Shown here piece by piece: positions 4,891 to 64,000 of a stretch of DNA of 64,000 bases. This DNA comes from Candidatus Dojkabacteria bacterium (GTDB lineage: Bacteria > Patescibacteriota > Dojkabacteria > B142 > WJKM01). Position 1 is the stretch's first letter, and the number at the start of each line of letters is the position of its first letter. The position numbers and the translations under genes were made by a program. The DNA lies in NCBI GenBank assembly GCA_014729085.1, contig WJKM01000011.1, positions 234,852 through 298,851 of the forward strand, read 5' to 3'. The notes beneath the pieces are model-generated. The model saw only the letters and a program-made list of their open reading frames with translations. It was not told the origin of the DNA and ran no database searches.

Positions 4891-4900
4891 GAAAGGAAAA

Positions 4901-4973
4901 TGCTCCAGGGTGGAATTGAACCACCGACCCCCGCTTTATAAGAACGGTGCTCTAACCCCTGAGCTACTGGAGC
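4901..4973 (-). tRNA. tRNA with anticodon UAU (tRNA-Ile, AUA-decoding type)
   Basis: 73-nt cloverleaf read on the minus strand: acceptor GCTCCAG/CTGGAGC, D stem GCTC/GAGC, anticodon stem CCGTT/AGCGG with loop CTTATAA (anticodon TAT), T stem GGTGG/CCACC, T loop TTCAATT. CCA is not encoded. Confidence 0.7.
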
Positions 4974-5143
4974 AGGTTTACGAAAATTTATTTGCTTACC
5001 TTGAAGTGAAAGTCACTTACTTATAAGTTCGTACCTGAAATTATAAATCTTGACAACGATCCAGTCAATTATAAATAGATATATTTGAAATGGATATATA
5101 ATTTAAGAAAGTAGCAAGGGGCAGCTCCTTGTTATTTCAATTT

Positions 5144-6022
5144 CTATAGAGGGATAACTTTTGCTGATTTCTTTTTCTTACGATCTTCTATAAGATTCAA
5201 GTATTTTTCCGTACTTGTAAGTCTTTGGTGGCCTACAATTTCTGCTACTCTTTCGATAGGTATTCCTCTTTCAAGTTGATAAACTATAAATGTGTTTCGT
5301 ATGTCATTAACTGTTGCATCTTCAATACCTGATTTTTCAAAAGCGTTGTTTATCATGGTTCTGATATTACGTACAAGCACCTGTCTGCCGGTTTTGGTTA
5401 TAAAAAGGTAACCTTGATCTTTTTCGGTATTTGGACGAACTTTCAAATATTCCTGAATTGCCTCCACAGCATTTTTATTAAGAGGGATCACTCTCTCTGG
5501 ATTACTTGCGTAAGCTTGAATCTTGGCTGTTGCGGGAGAGGATTCAAGGTCAACATTATCACGTTTGAGTCTTGAAAGTTCTCCTATTCTCATACCTGTT
5601 TGTAATAGTATTTCTATCATTGCATAAAGTCTTTCGTTGTTTCTTGCGGTATCTCTTAATGCTTTATATTCAAGACTGGAAAGAATTCTTGGGTCTTTCG
5701 GTTTGAAAGTGGGATGAGAAATTGGATGTGCAACGTCGGACTCAATATAGTTTTCTCGATGAAGGAATTTAAACAAAGTTTTATAACTATTTATTTTTCT
5801 GGAGACAGTTTTAAGAGTAAATTTTTTTTCTTTGATAAGATGCTCTATCCAAACTTTTATGTGCTTTGTTTTATAATCTGAGACCTTAGAATGCTCATCC
5901 TTATAAAAATCAAATAATTGTTCAATATCTTTTTTGTAGGCAATTATGGTGGAAGGTGATCTATCTTTTTCTTTCAGGTTATCAATGAATTTTTCAAGAG
6001 CCTCTGAATGTGTTAGTGTCAT
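5144..6022 (-). CDS. Tyrosine recombinase / phage-type integrase
   Basis: N-terminal SAM-like core-binding domain. Catalytic region carries an R box (GMRIGELSRLKRDNV), HxxR (VGHQRLTSTEKY) and the terminal Tyr (KYLNL). Confidence 0.8.
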   Translation of the reverse strand: MTLTHSEALEKFIDNLKEKDRSPSTIIAYKKDIEQLFDFYKDEHSKVSDYKTKHIKVWIEHLIKEKKFTLKTVSRKINSYKTLFKFLHRENYIESDVAHPISHPTFKPKDPRILSSLEYKALRDTARNNERLYAMIEILLQTGMRIGELSRLKRDNVDLESSPATAKIQAYASNPERVIPLNKNAVEAIQEYLKVRPNTEKDQGYLFITKTGRQVLVRNIRTMINNAFEKSGIEDATVNDIRNTFIVYQLERGIPIERVAEIVGHQRLTSTEKYLNLIEDRKKKKSAKVIPL

Positions 6023-6728: not shown

Positions 6729-6803
<75 letters not shown>

Positions 6804-7044
6804 GTTTTGGGAAATCTTCAGATGAAATACTTCATATATTGTTTATTATTACGGAAATTGGAAATTTTTTAAATTTACATTTTTCCGTACAAGCTGCCGA
6901 AATCCCGTTTTACGGGATAAAGGCAAATAATTCCGAGCACAGCGAGAATTATGTGCACATCCAAGAGAAATCCAAAGTTTCACTATTACGGTTATACAGG
7001 AAATCTTGAGCAGAGATTGAGGTATCACAATAGAGGAAAGGTGC
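6804..7044 (+). repeat. Direct repeat copy 1 (241 bp) immediately 3' of tRNA-Met; contains the 5' region of the GIY-YIG gene
   Basis: Near-identical (a few substitutions) to 7292..7532 when read directly from the sequence. Confidence 0.85.
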
Positions 7045-7313
7045 GAACCACAAATAGATTTAAACCTGTTGAATTGTTAGGTTACCGTGAATTTGAAACA
7101 AAGGAAGAAGCATTAGAGTTTGAGAAGAAATTAAAAAAGAGTGCAAGTGCAAGAAAGAAATTTATTAAAGAATTAAATGAGAATCGTCAGGCAGGTAACC
7201 TGAAGGTCGCGTGCCTGACAACCGTAGGTGGCAGGTACGTTCGAATCGCCGTGCCTGACATGAGTCATTCAGGCAGGTACTCCCGCAACCAGTTTTGGGA
7301 AATCTTCAGATGA
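6951..7313 (+). CDS. GIY-YIG nuclease-family protein (YhbQ/UPF0213-like), apparently frameshifted or 5'-truncated, with its 3' end running into tRNA-derived sequence
   Basis: HYYGYTGNLEQRLRYHNRGK...TNRFKPVELLGYREFETKEEALEFEKKLKKSASARKKFIKEL matches the YIGxTxNLxxRLxxHN core and tail of the small GIY-YIG family. The expected first strand (YVHIQ..., cf. YVYIL) lies in another frame just upstream (6947..6961). The last ~30 codons are encoded by the degenerate tRNA copy. Confidence 0.5.
   Translation: MCTSKRNPKFHYYGYTGNLEQRLRYHNRGKVRTTNRFKPVELLGYREFETKEEALEFEKKLKKSASARKKFIKELNENRQAGNLKVACLTTVGGRYVRIAVPDMSHSGRYSRNQFWEIFR
7196..7291 (+). pseudogene. Degenerate copy of the tRNA-Met 3' half (anticodon loop to CCA) carrying two inserted hairpin blocks
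   Basis: TAACCTGAAGGTCG + [26-nt insert] + TACGTTCGAATCG + [29-nt insert] + TACTCCCGCAACCA. The outer segments are identical to tRNA positions ~36-76. Both inserts begin C(C)GTGCCTGACA and end GGCAGG. Confidence 0.7.
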
Positions 7314-7532
7314 AATACTTCATATATTGTTTATTATTACGGAAATTGAAAATTTTTTAAATTTACATTTTTCCGTACAAGCTGCCGAAATCCCGTTTTA
7401 CGGGATAAAGGCAAATAATTCCGAGCACAGCGAGAGTTATGTGCACATCCAAGAGAAATCCAATGTTTCACTATTACGGTTATACGGGAAATCTTGAGCA
7501 GAGATTGAGATATCACAATAGAGGAAAGGTGC
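7292..7532 (+). repeat. Direct repeat copy 2 (241 bp)
   Basis: Same sequence as 6804..7044, offset 488 bp. Diverges after GGAAAGGTGC. Confidence 0.85.
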
Positions 7533-7549
7533 ATATAAGTTTCTTCTAA
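7439..7549 (+). pseudogene. Truncated second copy of the GIY-YIG gene (36 codons)
   Basis: MCTSKRNPMFHYYGYTGNLEQRLRYHNRGKVHISFF then stop. It is the copy-2 equivalent of 6951.., cut off where the repeat ends. Confidence 0.5.
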
Positions 7550-7672
7550 CACGGAGTCTAATGGCTTTCCCTATTGAGTAATTAGTATTGAGAGATTGAT
7601 TAGGTAAAAGGTTATTTCCAAACTTTTTAGTATTCTATAGAGTTCTTTTCCTACAACTAAAACTAAAGCCTT

Positions 7673-58284: not shown

Positions 58285-59247
58285 TTATTCAAGATTATCT
58301 TCTGGGTTGTCAAAGTTAAATGTATATATTTCTCTTAGAGAATATTTCAGAGAAAATAAAAGAGATGGAATCATATTTCGTAGTCTGAATCCATAAAATT
58401 TTTGTATTATCATTTTTTGTTCTTTAATTCTGAGCAGAGTGTACAGAATAGTAAGCACTAGGTGATATTTATACAATAACTTTTTTCTACTAATTTCCGG
58501 ATATTCCCACTTTAAAATTGTTCTATATGTTTTTTGCTTTTGTTCTCTCATTAACTTCTTGGCTTTAGTTTTGTGCTTGGGATGAGTAAAGAGTGTGTGG
58601 ATACCTGCTTGAATGTCATCTTGCATATCAACCCAATCATCCATATATTGGATATATGCACCAAGTTCAAATAAAGAGTTGAATTCAGCTTTTTTCATAC
58701 TTGGTTTTAAATGATGAATCAGTATAACCATTGTATATCCACCCTTTTTACGCGTTATTGATTGTAACTCCTCCAATGATATATTTTCATCTTTTTGGAA
58801 ACGACTCTTTTGTTGAGTATTATGGAGTTTTTGAAGAACCGCGTTAAATGAAGAATAAGTTTCATCTGGGATTCTATCTTTAATTTCTTTGAAAAGCTCA
58901 AGTGTTATGGTTTCAAGAGTGGTCTTAGGTACGAAGTCAGAGGTTTTCTTAAACATTAAATCCAAGCGATTTGGAGATATTTTCATATCGTCGATCAGAC
59001 TATCGTATGGAGAGATTAAAGCCGCAATTAAGGTTATTAGCTCTTTTTCCTTTCTAGTTAATCTATGATTTTTGAAATCTAAATAGTCATGTATAAAAGT
59101 TATCGGAATCATAATTGAGAGAAGTCTTGAAAAGGAAATAACATCTGATACTAATTTGTTTTTTGAATTTCTAGCTTTTAAAGCATTTTTCAGAAGTTTA
59201 TTCGATAGCCAGATTTGAGGAAAGAGTCTAACAAGAAAACGAAACAA
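58285..59247 (-). CDS. Hypothetical protein with isoprenoid-synthase-like Asp-rich motifs (squalene/phytoene-synthase-like?)
   Basis: ALISPYDSLIDDM and ELGAYIQYMDDWVDMQDDIQAG resemble the two Asp-rich motifs of class I isoprenoid synthases. Confidence 0.3.
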   Translation of the reverse strand: MFRFLVRLFPQIWLSNKLLKNALKARNSKNKLVSDVISFSRLLSIMIPITFIHDYLDFKNHRLTRKEKELITLIAALISPYDSLIDDMKISPNRLDLMFKKTSDFVPKTTLETITLELFKEIKDRIPDETYSSFNAVLQKLHNTQQKSRFQKDENISLEELQSITRKKGGYTMVILIHHLKPSMKKAEFNSLFELGAYIQYMDDWVDMQDDIQAGIHTLFTHPKHKTKAKKLMREQKQKTYRTILKWEYPEISRKKLLYKYHLVLTILYTLLRIKEQKMIIQKFYGFRLRNMIPSLLFSLKYSLREIYTFNFDNPEDNLE

Positions 59248-59368
59248 ATATTTTATTAACCTAATAAGATTGTGAACACCTCTTATGTTTAGTTTTACCG
59301 CTTTAGTGATTTTGTAAATGATATTATCTTAGATTGATTTAAATCAATATTGAACTATATTTATAATT

Positions 59369-60163
59369 CTAAAATACTTTTACTAATCCTTTATTTAGTA
59401 CTTTTTTATAACAATATTTTAAATATATCAGTGTCAGGATTAGATAGCCAGTATTAAGCATAAAGCTTATGATTATTTTATTCCAATCTAATATCCCTTC
59501 GTTAATTACCTCTCTCATACCTTCAAAAATGTAGCTTGTTGGAATAAGAGTCGCAATATTTTGTGCCCACATAGGAAGTATTTCGATGGGATAATAAACA
59601 GCCGAAAAAGGAGAAAGTATGGCAACAAAACTCCAAGCTAAAATTTCTACCTTGGATCCATAGCGTAAGATAATACCCATAACAAGAAATCCAACCCACC
59701 ATCCTGTTAGAAGTAGATTTAAGATAAAGGGAATTAGAGAAAACCCAAGTACAAATAAATTTGTTTGGTATAGAATAAACGCGATAAATATTGAAAGGAC
59801 AAAAGTTAAGCCTAACTTAGATAATGCAAATAACAAGGTGCCTAAAATATACTCCCAAAATTTCACAGGAGCTACAAAGTAATGCATAAAACTTCTATTC
59901 CAAAAATCTTCAAGCATGGATACTGTAATCATGTTTTGGTTTCTGTAAACCAGCATCCAAAATATAATACCGGACACTACCATTAAAAGTATATTGGGGA
60001 TACTAACAGTACTACTTTCGATGTATTTACTAGTAAGTCCCCATAATAATAAATCAATTACAGGCCAGAAGATCGTATCCATCATTCTAGTTATGCTGTG
60101 CATTGATTGGAATGTGTGTCTTAGGATTATTCCATATATTCTATTAAGTCCTATTTTCTTCAT
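59369..60163 (-). CDS. ABC-2 type transporter permease
   Basis: 264 aa, 6 predicted TM helices. Its start overlaps the stop of the ATPase gene, so the two are translationally coupled. Confidence 0.6.
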   Translation of the reverse strand: MKKIGLNRIYGIILRHTFQSMHSITRMMDTIFWPVIDLLLWGLTSKYIESSTVSIPNILLMVVSGIIFWMLVYRNQNMITVSMLEDFWNRSFMHYFVAPVKFWEYILGTLLFALSKLGLTFVLSIFIAFILYQTNLFVLGFSLIPFILNLLLTGWWVGFLVMGIILRYGSKVEILAWSFVAILSPFSAVYYPIEILPMWAQNIATLIPTSYIFEGMREVINEGILDWNKIIISFMLNTGYLILTLIYLKYCYKKVLNKGLVKVF

Positions 60164-61064
60164 CTTGTTTTGCGACTTCTAAAAAATAATCTTCGAGACT
60201 AGGTTTTTCTATACTAATTTCATCATAATTTATATTATTTACCGCAAGTTGTTTTAACAGTTGTGGTATCATCACCTCTTTTACTTCAACTTTAATATAA
60301 TTATCTTCCTGTTCATAATTAATTTCGTTTCTTTCACAATATTGCTGAATTTTATCTATTTCCTCCCCCATAAATTCTACATGGGCGGATTTTATACTTT
60401 TCGCAAGATTGAGTGGTGTATCTTTAGCAATTATCTTTCCTTTATCTATGAATATGACTCTGTCACAAACTTCTTCAATTTCTGCCATGTTATGCGATGT
60501 GAAAATCATTGAAACATTAAATTCTTTTCGTTGGTTTTTCAAAACTTTCCGTATTTTATTTGCAATATCTGGATCAAGAGATGCGGTCGGTTCATCAAGT
60601 AACAGTACTTTTGGAAAATTAATAAAAGATTTGGCAAGATTGATTTTAGTCTTCTGACCGTCTGAGAGTTCACGAATCTTCTTGTTCATTAATTTATCCA
60701 AAGAAAATATATTTTTAATTTTTTTTATCCGTTTTTTTCTATTTTTGATTTTGTACAGATAGGAAATATAGGTGAGATTCTCTCTGACAGTCATCTCCCA
60801 AGGAAAGTTGATATATGTTGAAGAAAAATTTACTCTTTCTAGGATTTCAACTCTGTGTTCAAATATGCTTTTTCCAAAGTATGTTACTTCGCCTGAACTG
60901 GGAGTGAGTACGGCAAGGAGCATCTGGATAGTTGTGGTTTTACCAGCTCCATTAGGACCAAGCAGTCCGAGAATTTCTCCTTCCTCGAGTTTAAAAGAAA
61001 TATTATCAACTGCTGTGAAATCTTTAAATTTTTTTGTTAAATTCTTTACTTCTAAGATTGCCAT
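60144..61064 (-). CDS. ABC transporter ATP-binding protein
   Basis: Walker [11 protein letters not shown], signature LSDGQK, Walker B LLLDEPT, H-loop TSHNM. Confidence 0.85.
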   Translation of the reverse strand: MAILEVKNLTKKFKDFTAVDNISFKLEEGEILGLLGPNGAGKTTTIQMLLAVLTPSSGEVTYFGKSIFEHRVEILERVNFSSTYINFPWEMTVRENLTYISYLYKIKNRKKRIKKIKNIFSLDKLMNKKIRELSDGQKTKINLAKSFINFPKVLLLDEPTASLDPDIANKIRKVLKNQRKEFNVSMIFTSHNMAEIEEVCDRVIFIDKGKIIAKDTPLNLAKSIKSAHVEFMGEEIDKIQQYCERNEINYEQEDNYIKVEVKEVMIPQLLKQLAVNNINYDEISIEKPSLEDYFLEVAKQDEENRT

Positions 61065-61258
61065 ATCAAACTAGAAACATAATTACTTAAATAGTCTATT
61101 GGAATAAAGTATGCTCGTCAAAATTATGAGCATTGGTTTTTGAGTAGCATGAATTTTTGTTAGTTAAAATCTGCATCTAATATTAATAACGTAATATTTG
61201 CTCATAAGTGTTGGTGAAATATACTATAAAAAAGAGTTTAATATAGTTATGCAATTAG
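60823..61258. repeat. Direct repeat copy A (~436 bp): first ~75 codons of the ABC ATPase plus its divergent upstream/promoter region
   Basis: Aligns base-for-base (a few substitutions and small indels) with 62753..63166. Confidence 0.85.
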
Positions 61259-61488
61259 TCGAATTAAACCCTTGCTTTTATCTATTATAGATGAATCGCG
61301 TTGAAAGGAAATAACTGAGATATAGAACAAAGAATATTGCAGTATGAGTATATAATAACTCAAGATACTGTTCTTTAAATATATAAAATCATAGAACTTC
61401 GTTTTGTTTGCAAAGTTGCAAACTATTAAACATATTTCAATCCATCTTATATAATTTATATATATTTAAAGTTTTTATATAATAAATT

Positions 61489-62262
61489 ATGGAATTACCT
61501 CCAGATATTAATTTAAATGGAATACCGGACGATCAAGATCCATTTATAGAGGGATATGGTATAAATTTTGATACTGATGGCAACAGTGTTGTTGATTTTT
61601 TAGATATACAAAATCCTGAGCATCCATATCATGCACACGCAAATTTGTTAGATCCAGCTTTAGTAAGGGCATATACGGGATATGAGAATGGTGAGAATGG
61701 GATTTACCATGCAGACCAGGATCATGATGGACTCCACGATCAGGAAGATCAGTACCCAGCTAGACCTGATAATAATCTTAATGGGATATTAGATGGAAAT
61801 GATCCTTTTTACGAAATAAGTCCTACAAGTGTCGATGTTGATGGTAATAGTGTAGTTGATTTTTTAGATGTATACTGGAATCCTGATCACCCGCATCATC
61901 ATTTATTAGACCCTAGATTGGTTAGAGAATACACTGAGAATTTTCGGGGCCACGATCAAGGAGTGAATGGAGAATTTCATTTAGACCAAGATCATGATGG
62001 ATACCATGTATTTGAAGATCCTGATGACCAGGATCCAAATATTCCTGAAAAACAACCTGAGGTGGAAGAAGAGAGTGACGTATTAGAACCCCAGGTAGTA
62101 GAAAATCCACCTTCGGATAATAATGTAGTCGAGGTTGCTCCTCAGAACGTTACATCAATAAGTTTGAAACCATCAGCTGAAATAATGGATAAAGATAATA
62201 AACGTGTTTTACCAAAGACAAAGGGATTTTATTTTGATCAGCACCCAAAACCAAAGGATTAA
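61489..62262 (+). CDS. His/Asp-rich protein with two ~100-aa internal repeats and Ca-binding-like loops
   Basis: Repeat 1 DINLNGIPDDQDPF...DTDGNSVVDFLDIQNPEHPYHAHANLLDPALVRAY...YHADQDHDG and repeat 2 DNNLNGILDGNDPF...DVDGNSVVDFLDVYWNPDHPHHHLLDPRLVREY...FHLDQDHDG. The DxDGNSVVDFLD loops look dockerin/EF-hand-like. Acidic C-terminal tail. No signal peptide. Confidence 0.45.
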   Translation: MELPPDINLNGIPDDQDPFIEGYGINFDTDGNSVVDFLDIQNPEHPYHAHANLLDPALVRAYTGYENGENGIYHADQDHDGLHDQEDQYPARPDNNLNGILDGNDPFYEISPTSVDVDGNSVVDFLDVYWNPDHPHHHLLDPRLVREYTENFRGHDQGVNGEFHLDQDHDGYHVFEDPDDQDPNIPEKQPEVEEESDVLEPQVVENPPSDNNVVEVAPQNVTSISLKPSAEIMDKDNKRVLPKTKGFYFDQHPKPKD

Positions 62263-62335
62263 AGAAGCGATTTTGAATATTTCGTCTCCATAAAACACAA
62301 AATAACGTTACTTTATAGCTTTTTAATCAAAAAAT

Positions 62336-62743
62336 ATGCAAGAGGATGAAACAAGGTGGTTTTCGGTTATACCCGAGGGAGGGTCAATATTTACTGATCC
62401 AGATGGAGGAAGACATTATTATTCTACCACGCTTGAAGGCCGTAGTACTGCTCCATATATACTGCCTTCTGTTGTTTGGTGTAATAGAATTCCAGTTTCC
62501 CCAGATGATAAATTTTATCAAGGGGTAGAGGTTGTTGATCCAGAAACTTGTCCTGCTAGGACAGAAGATAATAGATGTAGAGCATGTGGGGTATTCAAAG
62601 TTAGTGATCATGTTGATAATGCGGTTCCAGCACTATGTATTGTAAATACACCAGAAGAATTGAGGAGGAGACCGCAAGTTGGAATATGCCTTACAAATGA
62701 TATACATCGAGCCGCATTAAGAAGTGCTCTAGGGCCAGAATAA
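62336..62743 (+). CDS. Hypothetical Cys-containing protein
   Basis: 135-aa ORF (…CPARTEDNRCRACGVFKV…CIVNTPEEL…) co-oriented with the His/Asp-rich gene. Confidence 0.35.
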   Translation: MQEDETRWFSVIPEGGSIFTDPDGGRHYYSTTLEGRSTAPYILPSVVWCNRIPVSPDDKFYQGVEVVDPETCPARTEDNRCRACGVFKVSDHVDNAVPALCIVNTPEELRRRPQVGICLTNDIHRAALRSALGPE

Positions 62744-62752
62744 GAACAATTT

Positions 62753-63166
62753 GAAAAATTTACTCTTCTAAGATTTCAACTCCGTGTTCAAATATGCTTT
62801 TTCTAAAGTAGGTTACTTCGCCTGAACTGGGAGTGAGTACGGCAAGGAGCATCTGGATAGTTGTGGTTTTACCAGCTCCATTAGGACCAAGCAGTCCGAG
62901 AATTTCTCCTTCCTCGAGTTTAAAAGAAATATTATCAACTGCTGTAAAATCTTTAATTTTTTTAAATTCCTTACTTCTAAGATTGCCATATCAAACTAGA
63001 AACATCATTACTTAAATAGTCTATTGGAATAACGTATGCTCGTCAAAATTATGAGCATTGGTTTGTGGGTACTATTAATTTTTGTCAGTTAAATCTGCAT
63101 TTATTTGCTAATAAGTGTTGGTAAAATATACTATAATAAAGAGTTTTAATATAGTTATGTAATTAG
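62753..63166. repeat. Direct repeat copy B (~414 bp)
   Basis: Second copy of the ABC-ATPase 5' end plus promoter region. It contains a 4-nt deletion relative to copy A. Confidence 0.85.
62760..62989 (-). pseudogene. Frameshifted fragment of the ABC ATPase N-terminus within repeat copy B
   Basis: Begins MAILEV... as in the intact gene. The 4-nt deletion shifts the frame after ~10 codons. No continuation beyond the repeat. Confidence 0.6.
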
Positions 63167-64000
63167 ATGCCGAAGTTATATACAAGCGAAAGCGTAACAG
63201 AAGGTCATCCTGACAAGCTTTGTGATCAGATAGTTGATACTATCTTAGACGAATGTCTGGAACAAGACTCGGAATCTAGAGTTGCAGTTGAAGCAATTTT
63301 AAAATCAAATAAAGCCGTTGTTTTTGGGGAAGTTACTTCTAAGGCAAAAATAGATGTAGCTCCTATGGTGAAAAAAATTTTAAAAGATGCAGGATACTCA
63401 AAAGAGTCATTAGGTTTTGGCCTTGATGATTTGAAGATAGTGGAATTTCTTTCTAAGCAAAGTGAAGATATCTCCCAAGGTGTTAGCGAAGACAAAGAAG
63501 GATTAAAAGAACAGGGAGCTGGAGATCAAGGAATTATGTACGGTTATGCTTGTCGGGACACTTCAGATTTTATGCCTCTTCCAATTACAATTGCACATAA
63601 GATAGCTGTGAAAATGGCCGAAGTAAGGAAAAAAGGTAAAATCGATTACTTAAGGCCTGACGGCAAAACCCAGGTTACATTTGAATATGAAAAAGGTAAG
63701 CCTAAAAGGTTGCATACTGTTGTACTTTCCTCTCAGCATAGCGAAGATGTGGAATTACAAGATTTAATAAAAGACATGAAAGCTAAAATCATCGAACCAG
63801 TATGTAGTGAATGGTTAGATCTGAATACAATATTTCATATTAATCCTACAGGAAGATTTGTTATTGGGGGCCCAGTTGCAGATTCGGGCCTATCTGGTAA
63901 AAAAACTGGTGTTGATACATACGGTGGTCTTGCTAAGCATGGCGGAGGCTCTTTCTCCGGGAAGGATCCATCAAAAGTAGATAGAAGTGCAACTTATGCG
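63167..64000 (+). CDS. metK: S-adenosylmethionine synthetase (3' end outside window)
   Basis: MPKLYTSESVTEGHPDKLCDQIVDTILDE..., GAGDQGIMYGYA, DGKTQVT, GGPVADSGLSGKK and GGGSFSGKDPSKVDRSA are MetK signatures. The ORF is open to the window edge, so it is absent from the ORF track. Confidence 0.9.
   Translation, partial: MPKLYTSESVTEGHPDKLCDQIVDTILDECLEQDSESRVAVEAILKSNKAVVFGEVTSKAKIDVAPMVKKILKDAGYSKESLGFGLDDLKIVEFLSKQSEDISQGVSEDKEGLKEQGAGDQGIMYGYACRDTSDFMPLPITIAHKIAVKMAEVRKKGKIDYLRPDGKTQVTFEYEKGKPKRLHTVVLSSQHSEDVELQDLIKDMKAKIIEPVCSEWLDLNTIFHINPTGRFVIGGPVADSGLSGKKTGVDTYGGLAKHGGGSFSGKDPSKVDRSATYA

Follow-up and report, generated by a model that had tools for sequence, protein, structure and literature searches.

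Campbell-type insertion-duplication is the single-crossover integration of a circular DNA that carries a segment of chromosomal homology, and the target-site duplications made by transposases are 2–14 nt long. In bacteria, promoters have also been described as being duplicated or captured through recombination, duplication and deletion (PMC3488235, PMC6614815). Putative mobile promoters have been defined as sequences of at least 50 nt with at least 80% identity within the first 100–150 nt upstream of the starts of non-homologous coding sequences, and cases that share homology in the neighbouring upstream coding sequence were filtered out of that data set (PMC3488235). Here we analyze a 64,000-nt stretch from a Candidatus Dojkabacteria bacterium (assembly GCA_014729085.1, contig WJKM01000011.1, positions 234,852 to 298,851; hereafter the window, in whose numbering all positions are given). 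In this window, a module of ~0.42 kb, made up of the 5' end of an ABC transporter ATPase gene and the intergenic region next to it, occurs once at the ATPase gene (copy A) and once directly in front of metK, which encodes S-adenosylmethionine synthetase (copy B). Two orphan open reading frames, ORF1 and ORF2, lie between the copies, and a preliminary description of the locus took them for a cassette that had entered between metK and the ABC operon. The direction of that event was an assumption, and we find that the boundaries, the codon usage of the two ORFs and the missing terminator fit the reverse history better. With a probability that we put a little above even, ORF1-ORF2-metK is the native arrangement, the promoter module was copied into the tight junction between ORF2 and metK, and the 1.5-kb segment was not the part that moved.

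Results

The two copies of the module are a diverged direct duplication

The copies have the same orientation, lie 1.9 kb apart and occupy 60823–61258 (copy A, 436 nt) and 62753–63166 (copy B, 414 nt). These are exactly the coordinates of the preliminary description, recovered with both self-blastn and MAFFT. In a self-blastn of the whole window, the copies form one match of 437 columns with 89.9% identity counting gaps (E value 1.8e-168). The pairwise alignment that had been proposed for mapping the exact ends left those ends in place and brought out 20 substitutions and 5 indels: the MAFFT global alignment has 393 identical columns (95.2% identity at aligned bases), with copy B missing 1, 4, 1 and 17 nt and copy A missing 1 nt. 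A repeat search of 59000–64000 returned co-linear direct blocks (D1, D2, D3 and D7) that span 60837–61258 and 62766–63166. The only other repeat found by self-blastn in the window, 6789–7044 versus 7277–7532, is unrelated to this pair, which is thus a two-copy local duplication and not part of a dispersed repeat family.

As first described, the module joins the start of the ABC ATPase gene to the entire divergent intergenic region, with the correction that the coding part is 242 nt, or ~80 codons, rather than ~75. In copy A this coding part is followed by an intergenic region of 194 nt; in copy B, a decayed stub of the ABC 5' end is followed by 177 nt of intergenic sequence, of which the last base, 63166, directly precedes the metK ATG at 63167, so that metK does keep its full upstream region. 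Nine of the A/B differences (7 substitutions and 2 indels) fall in the 242-nt coding part, versus 16 in the 194-nt intergenic part. Moreover, a run of 134 nt that spans the Walker A region (60883–61016 versus 62812–62945) holds no difference at all; its probability would be ~0.002 if the 25 differences were evenly spread. This identical core suggests gene conversion between the intact ABC gene and the dead stub as the simplest explanation.

The ABC operon retains the intact copy A, and the ABC fragment in copy B is dead. The intact gene (60144–61064, minus strand) encodes an ATP-binding protein of 306 aa (Pfam ABC_tran, E value 5.1e-30, and DrrA1-3_C), the first ~80 codons of which lie in copy A. 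The pseudogene stub in copy B (62753–62989, minus strand) has kept its ATG and carries a 4-nt deletion at codons 9–10 and a 1-nt deletion at codon 76, in line with the earlier account of a frameshifted remnant. In comparison with 118 ABC homologues, copy A has the family-consensus residue and copy B a derived residue at each of four non-synonymous changes (K7R, F13I, G64R and R71G), sites that are conserved in 75–114 of the 118. Judged from this alignment, the pattern of divergence is that of in-situ decay of a redundant copy B. The copies are neither identical nor interchangeable, which counts against an assembly artefact; the pattern of decay likewise counts against the idea that a diverged but functional donor gene supplied one of the copies. 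As in segmental (dispersed direct) duplications, there are two same-orientation copies with similarity far above chance, and one redundant copy is under relaxed constraint (two frameshifts and four derived non-synonymous changes in copy B). On these comparisons, the repeat pair is genuine: the 0.42-kb module was duplicated within the chromosome, in direct orientation and fairly long ago, and the copies have diverged by ~5%.

ORF1 and ORF2 look like resident genes

Two co-oriented ORFs lie between the copies, as had been reported: ORF1 (GF362_04790; 61489–62262, plus strand, 257 aa) and ORF2 (GF362_04795; 62336–62743, plus strand, 135 aa with 6 Cys), separated by a 73-nt spacer. Both are orphans. 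A word-indexed homology search of ~5.8 billion proteins returned only self matches for ORF1 and ORF2, an exhaustive phmmer search of 1.84 billion representatives with ORF1 returned only ORF1 itself, and an exact-sequence look-up of the two proteins gave no record. Neither protein had a credible match in Pfam, PHROGs or NCBIfam at lenient thresholds, or any match among the PDB sequences searched; ORF2 had no match in IMG/VR or among GenBank phages, and ORF1 had none in PLSDB plasmids. Single-sequence AlphaFold (AF2) models, with predicted local distance difference test scores of 35 (ORF1) and 42 (ORF2), were too poor for a fold search.

The ORF1 protein is 14% Asp, contains 15 His, has a net charge of −43 and is without a hydrophobic segment. 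It is built of an internal tandem duplication, two units of ~90 aa that are ~45% identical and follow the pattern NLNGI.D..DPF...D.DGNSVVDFLD...HLLDP.LVR.YT...DQDHDG.H, and the duplication can still be seen in the DNA as a 61-nt stretch of 80% identity (61575–61632 versus 61839–61899). EF-hand/dockerin-like D-x-D-G-N-x-V-V-D-F-L-D motifs occur in it together with His clusters, and from these motifs one might guess that ORF1 binds a metal or calcium.

The composition of both genes is that of their surroundings. At codon positions 1, 2 and 3, the GC content of ORF1 is 0.61, 0.28 and 0.23 and that of ORF2 is 0.55, 0.49 and 0.20, with a window range of 0.22–0.36 at the third position (GC3). Since GC is raised in codon positions 1 and 2 only, the mildly higher GC of the segment reflects amino-acid content and not foreign origin. 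The codon-adaptation index, trained on the other 43 window genes, is 0.761 for ORF1 and 0.757 for ORF2, among the highest of the 45 window genes. The atypical composition or codon usage of horizontally acquired islands is not found in ORF1 or ORF2, and we rule out a compositionally foreign island on the native GC3 and codon usage. A foreign gene would be unable to ameliorate within the time represented by ~5% repeat divergence, and the native composition therefore supports a native origin of the pair. By these measures, ORF1 and ORF2 look like real, resident genes. Their persistence through ~5% divergence, next to a 134-nt core that is ample for RecA-mediated loop-out, suggests that selection maintains them.

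The junction with metK favours insertion of the module

The metK gene (63167–64000, plus strand; first codons MPKLYTSESVTEGHPDK) runs off the window after its 5' 278 codons and matches Pfam S-AdoMet_synt_N, _M and _C. The left end of copy B, 62753, is 9 nt past the ORF2 TAA (62741–62743), and its right end is the base directly before the metK ATG. If copy B is excised in silico, what is left is TAA-GAACAATTT-ATG. Among ~16 same-strand neighbour pairs in the window, 5 overlap or are at most 11 nt apart, so the restored sequence is a normal operon junction for this window. No terminator-like site is present in the 9 nt between the ORF2 stop codon and copy B; the nearest is a hairpin at 63036–63058, inside copy B. 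The sole feature of the junction is a 9-mer near-repeat, GAACAATTT|GAAAAATTT, at 62744–62761.

The final structure, L-R-X-R'-metK, is identical whether X (ORF1-ORF2) or the second R was inserted. With the module as the moving part, a single insertion point, limited only by the need to spare ORF2 and metK, accounts for both ends of copy B. The native codon usage, the lack of a terminator-like site before copy B and the lack of mobility features point in the same direction as this boundary argument. In the history that we favour, co-directional ORF1-ORF2-metK would have lain downstream of the ABC/ORF1 intergenic region, with ~9 nt from the ORF2 stop codon to the metK ATG. The upstream module would then have been copied from 1.9 kb away and inserted at the ORF2-metK junction. 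The candidate mechanisms are illegitimate ones: template switching, a templated insertion or filler at a break, self DNA that integrated illegitimately, or a tandem duplication of which a deletion later removed part.

Promoter-like sites in the module and in the ORF1 leader

The promoter-like sites given here are consensus matches only. On the ABC side, TTGACG-17-TAGACT (61093–61121 in copy A, minus strand) has a −10 that ends 28 nt before the ABC ATG, and in copy B (63018–63046) both hexamers are identical to those of copy A. Its −35 is overlapped by a hairpin or palindrome, ATGCTCGTCAAAATTATGAGCAT, at 61111–61133 (plus strand), which is identical in copy B (63036–63058) and could be an operator or a weak terminator. 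On the metK side, copy B contains TTGCTA-16-TATACT (63105–63132, plus strand), the −10 of which ends 34 nt ahead of the metK start codon, as is usual for this genome. Judged by consensus, metK thus has a promoter-like element that is complete and suitably placed. The copy A version of this site, TTGCTC-16-TATACT (61198–61225, plus strand), falls below the scan threshold, as its −35 matches 3 of 6 positions, and 263 nt separate its end from the start of ORF1.

The 230 nt between copy A and ORF1 (61259–61488, plus strand) form an AT-rich and unique leader with a palindrome, GTTTGCAAAGTTGCAAAC, and two promoter-like sites. The ORF1-proximal site, TAAACA-17-TATAAT (61427–61455, plus strand), matches the consensus at 10 of 12 positions, with a −10 that ends 33 nt before the ATG; the second is TTTATA-17-TATAAT (61455–61483, plus strand). 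Immediately upstream of the ORF1-proximal site lies the palindrome (61406–61423), which is perfect, GTTTGCAA-AG-TTGCAAAC, and could serve as an operator. The preliminary description placed ORF1 and ORF2 behind a duplicate of the metK-side promoter; this holds as geometry, but that site is 263 nt away and ORF1 has a better-scoring site of its own at 33 nt, a distance typical of this genome. The leader folds marginally better than its shuffles (z = −2.06), and Rfam, at the gathering threshold and at E ≤5, gave no riboswitch and no small RNA over 60900–63300.

Upstream of the 45 larger ORFs of the window, −10-like hexamers are mildly concentrated 30–40 nt before the start codons. We considered leaderless transcription of ORF1, from the TATAAT 5 nt before its ATG, and dropped it, as −10-like hexamers are not enriched at that distance genome-wide. 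A Shine-Dalgarno-like motif was seen upstream of none of these 45 ORFs, whose upstream regions are AT-rich, which suggests that translation initiation in this Dojkabacteria genome is Shine-Dalgarno-independent.

With this arrangement of sites, metK would be transcribed from the rightward promoter of copy B, independently of ORF1-ORF2, and ORF1-ORF2 from the proximal promoter-like site of ORF1. From the leftward ABC-side promoter kept in copy B, antisense transcription would run across the stub and ORF2. Read-through from ORF2 would meet the weak hairpin in copy B, which perhaps insulates metK, and the two copies may still interact through gene conversion.

Weighing the direction of the event

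Several points weigh against insertion of the module. Its polarity, as we reconstruct it, is argued from parsimony about the boundaries, as the searched collections contain no genome close enough to show the ancestral state. We saw no microhomology, target-site duplication or inverted repeat at the A/B junctions, so that nothing there singles out one of the candidate mechanisms. The promoter-like sites occur at chance density for AT-rich DNA (9 found versus 11.8 expected). Finally, copy B together with metK resembles an ordinary compact divergent promoter region, with −10 boxes at distances of 28 nt (ABC side) and 34 nt (metK side) from the start codons. If the module was inserted, this spacing would be a modest coincidence, with a chance of roughly 20–40% by genome background.

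The last point is one of those that speak for the chief alternative, that an ancestral ABC ← intergenic → metK region received the 1,494-nt ORF1-ORF2 segment with duplication of 436 nt of target. The segment could have arrived by a Campbell-type single crossover of a ~1.9-kb circle, by tandem duplication of the module followed by insertion, or at a long staggered break that was then filled in. An insert between direct repeats of a homology region is the exact geometry of insertion-duplication, and the normal look of copy B plus metK as a divergent promoter region, its two −10 boxes typically spaced, would then be expected. Recently acquired accessory genes are often orphans without a homologue, as ORF1 and ORF2 are, and the promoter-like sites in the ORF1 leader would suit an autonomous cassette. 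Nevertheless, we consider insertion of the two genes possible but less likely, since it needs two independent coincidences, a right breakpoint at the metK ATG and an insert that ends 9 nt past a stop codon. Duplication would preserve metK at any breakpoint, and so nothing in an insertion of ORF1-ORF2 requires a break exactly at the ATG. The codon usage and GC3 of both genes are as native as those of any window gene, and the ABC differences are pseudogene-type decay in copy B, not mostly synonymous changes as from a diverged functional donor. Mobility genes, inverted repeats and att-like sites are lacking, as are viral or phage matches for ORF2 and plasmid matches for ORF1.

An improbable history, which agrees with module insertion that ORF1-ORF2 is native, has two steps: a tandem duplication of the 1.93-kb unit of module, ORF1 and ORF2, and then a deletion that took out the second ORF1-ORF2 pair and brought the second promoter copy up to metK. 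In experiments, the promoter-capture route observed most commonly is a tandem duplication with a subsequent deletion (PMC6614815). The junction 62752|62753 has the form of a tandem-duplication junction, and a tRNA/GIY-YIG unit elsewhere in the window is tandemly duplicated as well, in 1.5 copies. Against this, the duplication and the deletion would need to share an endpoint, at one and the same base in front of the metK ATG, self-blastn of the window showed no remnant of a second ORF1/ORF2 copy, and the putative deletion junction has no microhomology.

We find it very unlikely that the structure is an artefact of short-read assembly, in which a single true module gained its second copy, or the whole R+X unit, from mis-joined strain variants or a small circle. 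The source is a metagenome-assembled genome with a second partial duplication in the same window, and the 134-nt exact block could tangle a de Bruijn graph, for which the alternative path would be an uninterrupted chromosome plus a 1.93-kb circle. Yet 20 substitutions and 5 indels mean that the copies are no collapsed or duplicated identical sequence, and the joining of the ORF2 end to ABC codon ~80 (62752|62753) can only stem from a rearrangement that really took place in one genome or another. In the path as assembled, the ABC gene is intact and all degenerative changes are in the stub, whereas the other resolution of the graph at the 134-nt block puts the 4-nt frameshift into the chromosomal ABC gene.

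As hard to credit as an artefact is the idea that in this CPR (Candidate Phyla Radiation) bacterium, thought to rely on DNA uptake, ORF1-ORF2 and one module form a 1.93-kb recombinase-less 'homology-arm hitch-hiker' that enters and leaves the chromosome by RecA-dependent single crossover through captured 0.42-kb host promoter DNA; if it were true, the cargo of the hitch-hiker would be two proteins unique to the lineage, a very acidic, His-rich one and a Cys-rich one, which may serve an episymbiotic lifestyle.

Related loci in other genomes

The closest homologues of the ABC ATPase are 63–67% identical and all of CPR type; the best non-self match is 67% among the ~5.8 billion proteins and 63% when one genome per GTDB species is considered. 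In the latter collection, none of 80 ABC loci with 10-kb flanks has metK, ORF1 or ORF2 nearby. The best match of metK in metagenome contigs is 58% identical, and the ABC genes adjoining such matches are only unrelated paralogues of 25–29% identity. In total, none of 160 loci combines the orthologous ABC operon with metK, and none encodes anything that resembles ORF1 or ORF2. A DNA pattern for the uninterrupted junction (YINFPWEM codons, 450–480 nt, EGHPDK codons) had no match in JGI metagenomes, which is a weak test, as relatives are absent there. The search for an uninterrupted ABC-metK junction that the preliminary description called for thus found none, and no relative was close enough (best ABC 67%, metK 58%). 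The ancestral junction could not be observed because the searched collections contain no close relative.

Other features of the window

Next to the ATPase gene lies a gene for an ABC-2 type permease (59369–60163, minus strand, 264 aa; Pfam ABC2_membrane, E value 2e-8). The two genes overlap by 20 nt and thus belong to the same operon, and the gene pair is conserved in relatives. Downstream of this operon is an ORF of 320 aa (58285–59247) with a faint polyprenyl-synthetase match (E value 0.0024, below the Pfam cut-off); it has no counterpart beside the ABC operon in the 80 ABC-anchored related loci.

The second partial tandem duplication, at 6729–7560, begins with tRNA-Met(CAT) (6729–6803), followed by a GIY-YIG nuclease ORF (6951–7313; Pfam GIY-YIG, E value 7.6e-14). 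The segment 6789–7044, which takes in the 3'-terminal 12–15 nt of the tRNA, then the spacer and ~30 codons at the start of the GIY-YIG gene, recurs at 7277–7532 with 98% identity. Just before this recurrence, from ~7189, there is a degenerate copy of the 3' two-thirds of the tRNA, split by GC-rich insertions of 26 and 29 nt (7209–7234 and 7248–7276) that have the motif GTGCCTGAC in common. By its layout, the region looks like a tandem or decayed tRNA-linked GIY-YIG element. Approximately 700 bp upstream of it, in the region 4900–6022, is a tyrosine recombinase of 292 aa with Pfam Phage_integrase and SAM-like N domains, which adjoins tRNA-Ile(TAT) and is probably of XerC/D type.

Discussion

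The locus would be a natural example of a promoter region copied so as to rewire an essential gene, metK, without a mobile element. It also draws attention to two orphan genes that look expressed, and its direct repeats predict a population polymorphism in which ORF1-ORF2 is looped out. CPR/Patescibacteria genomes are very small and streamlined, which makes the retention of a 0.4-kb duplicate with a dead gene stub a little unusual.

Transposon or insertion-sequence insertion resembles this locus in that direct repeats flank a segment. We ruled it out on two points that the preliminary description had also noted, the length of the flanking repeats (414–436 nt, ~30–200 times longer than a transposase target-site duplication) and the lack of a transposase in the 1.5-kb segment; in addition, no terminal inverted repeats pair the ends at 61259 and 62752, and the segment has neither a recombinase nor an attC-like site. 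Integron cassettes are similar in that they are small ORFs without a mobility gene of their own behind an external promoter. They too were ruled out: there is no attC, with only 9 nt after the ORF2 stop codon, and no integron integrase or attI nearby. No recombinase match was found among the larger ORFs scanned within ~12 kb upstream, and downstream the sequence ends at 64000. The only tyrosine recombinase of the window is 55 kb away, and its matches are to generic phage-integrase-family Pfam entries, which do not distinguish an integron integrase. Campbell-type insertion-duplication shares its geometry with this locus, in which direct repeats as long as the homology segment enclose an insert and the target gene is present once intact and once truncated. 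None of its other hallmarks is seen: our locus has no replicon, marker, recombinase or sign of a circle, and has instead a compositionally native insert, boundaries at gene ends and in-situ decay in place of donor-recipient divergence.

The concepts that come closest to this locus are promoter duplication or propagation (PMC3488235) and the promoter capture by duplication or deletion that has been observed in experiments (PMC6614815). The promoter propagation described by Matus-Garcia, Nijveen and van Passel (2012; PMC3488235) shares with this locus a conserved upstream region that is present twice per genome in front of non-homologous genes, but this locus has just two copies, at a distance of 1.9 kb, and involves no mobile element. 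The pair falls outside their definition. Although copy B directly adjoins the metK ATG, copy A stops 230 nt short of the ORF1 start codon, outside the distance used for putative mobile promoters, and each copy takes in ~80 codons from the 5' end of the ABC ATPase gene, the kind of upstream homology that was excluded. In the promoter capture seen in Escherichia coli through spontaneous tandem duplication or deletion (PMC6614815, PMC11111574), as in this locus, a local rearrangement places an existing promoter before another gene, again without a mobile element and with partial gene copies that remain. Those events show microhomology at the breakpoints and consist of complete tandem units or simple deletions, whereas here only 0.42 kb was duplicated, no microhomology is visible and the event is old (~5% divergence). 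The type of event, a local duplication or promoter capture, is nevertheless an ordinary and well-documented one, and the locus leaves current understanding unchanged, as such events have been documented both experimentally and by comparative genomics.

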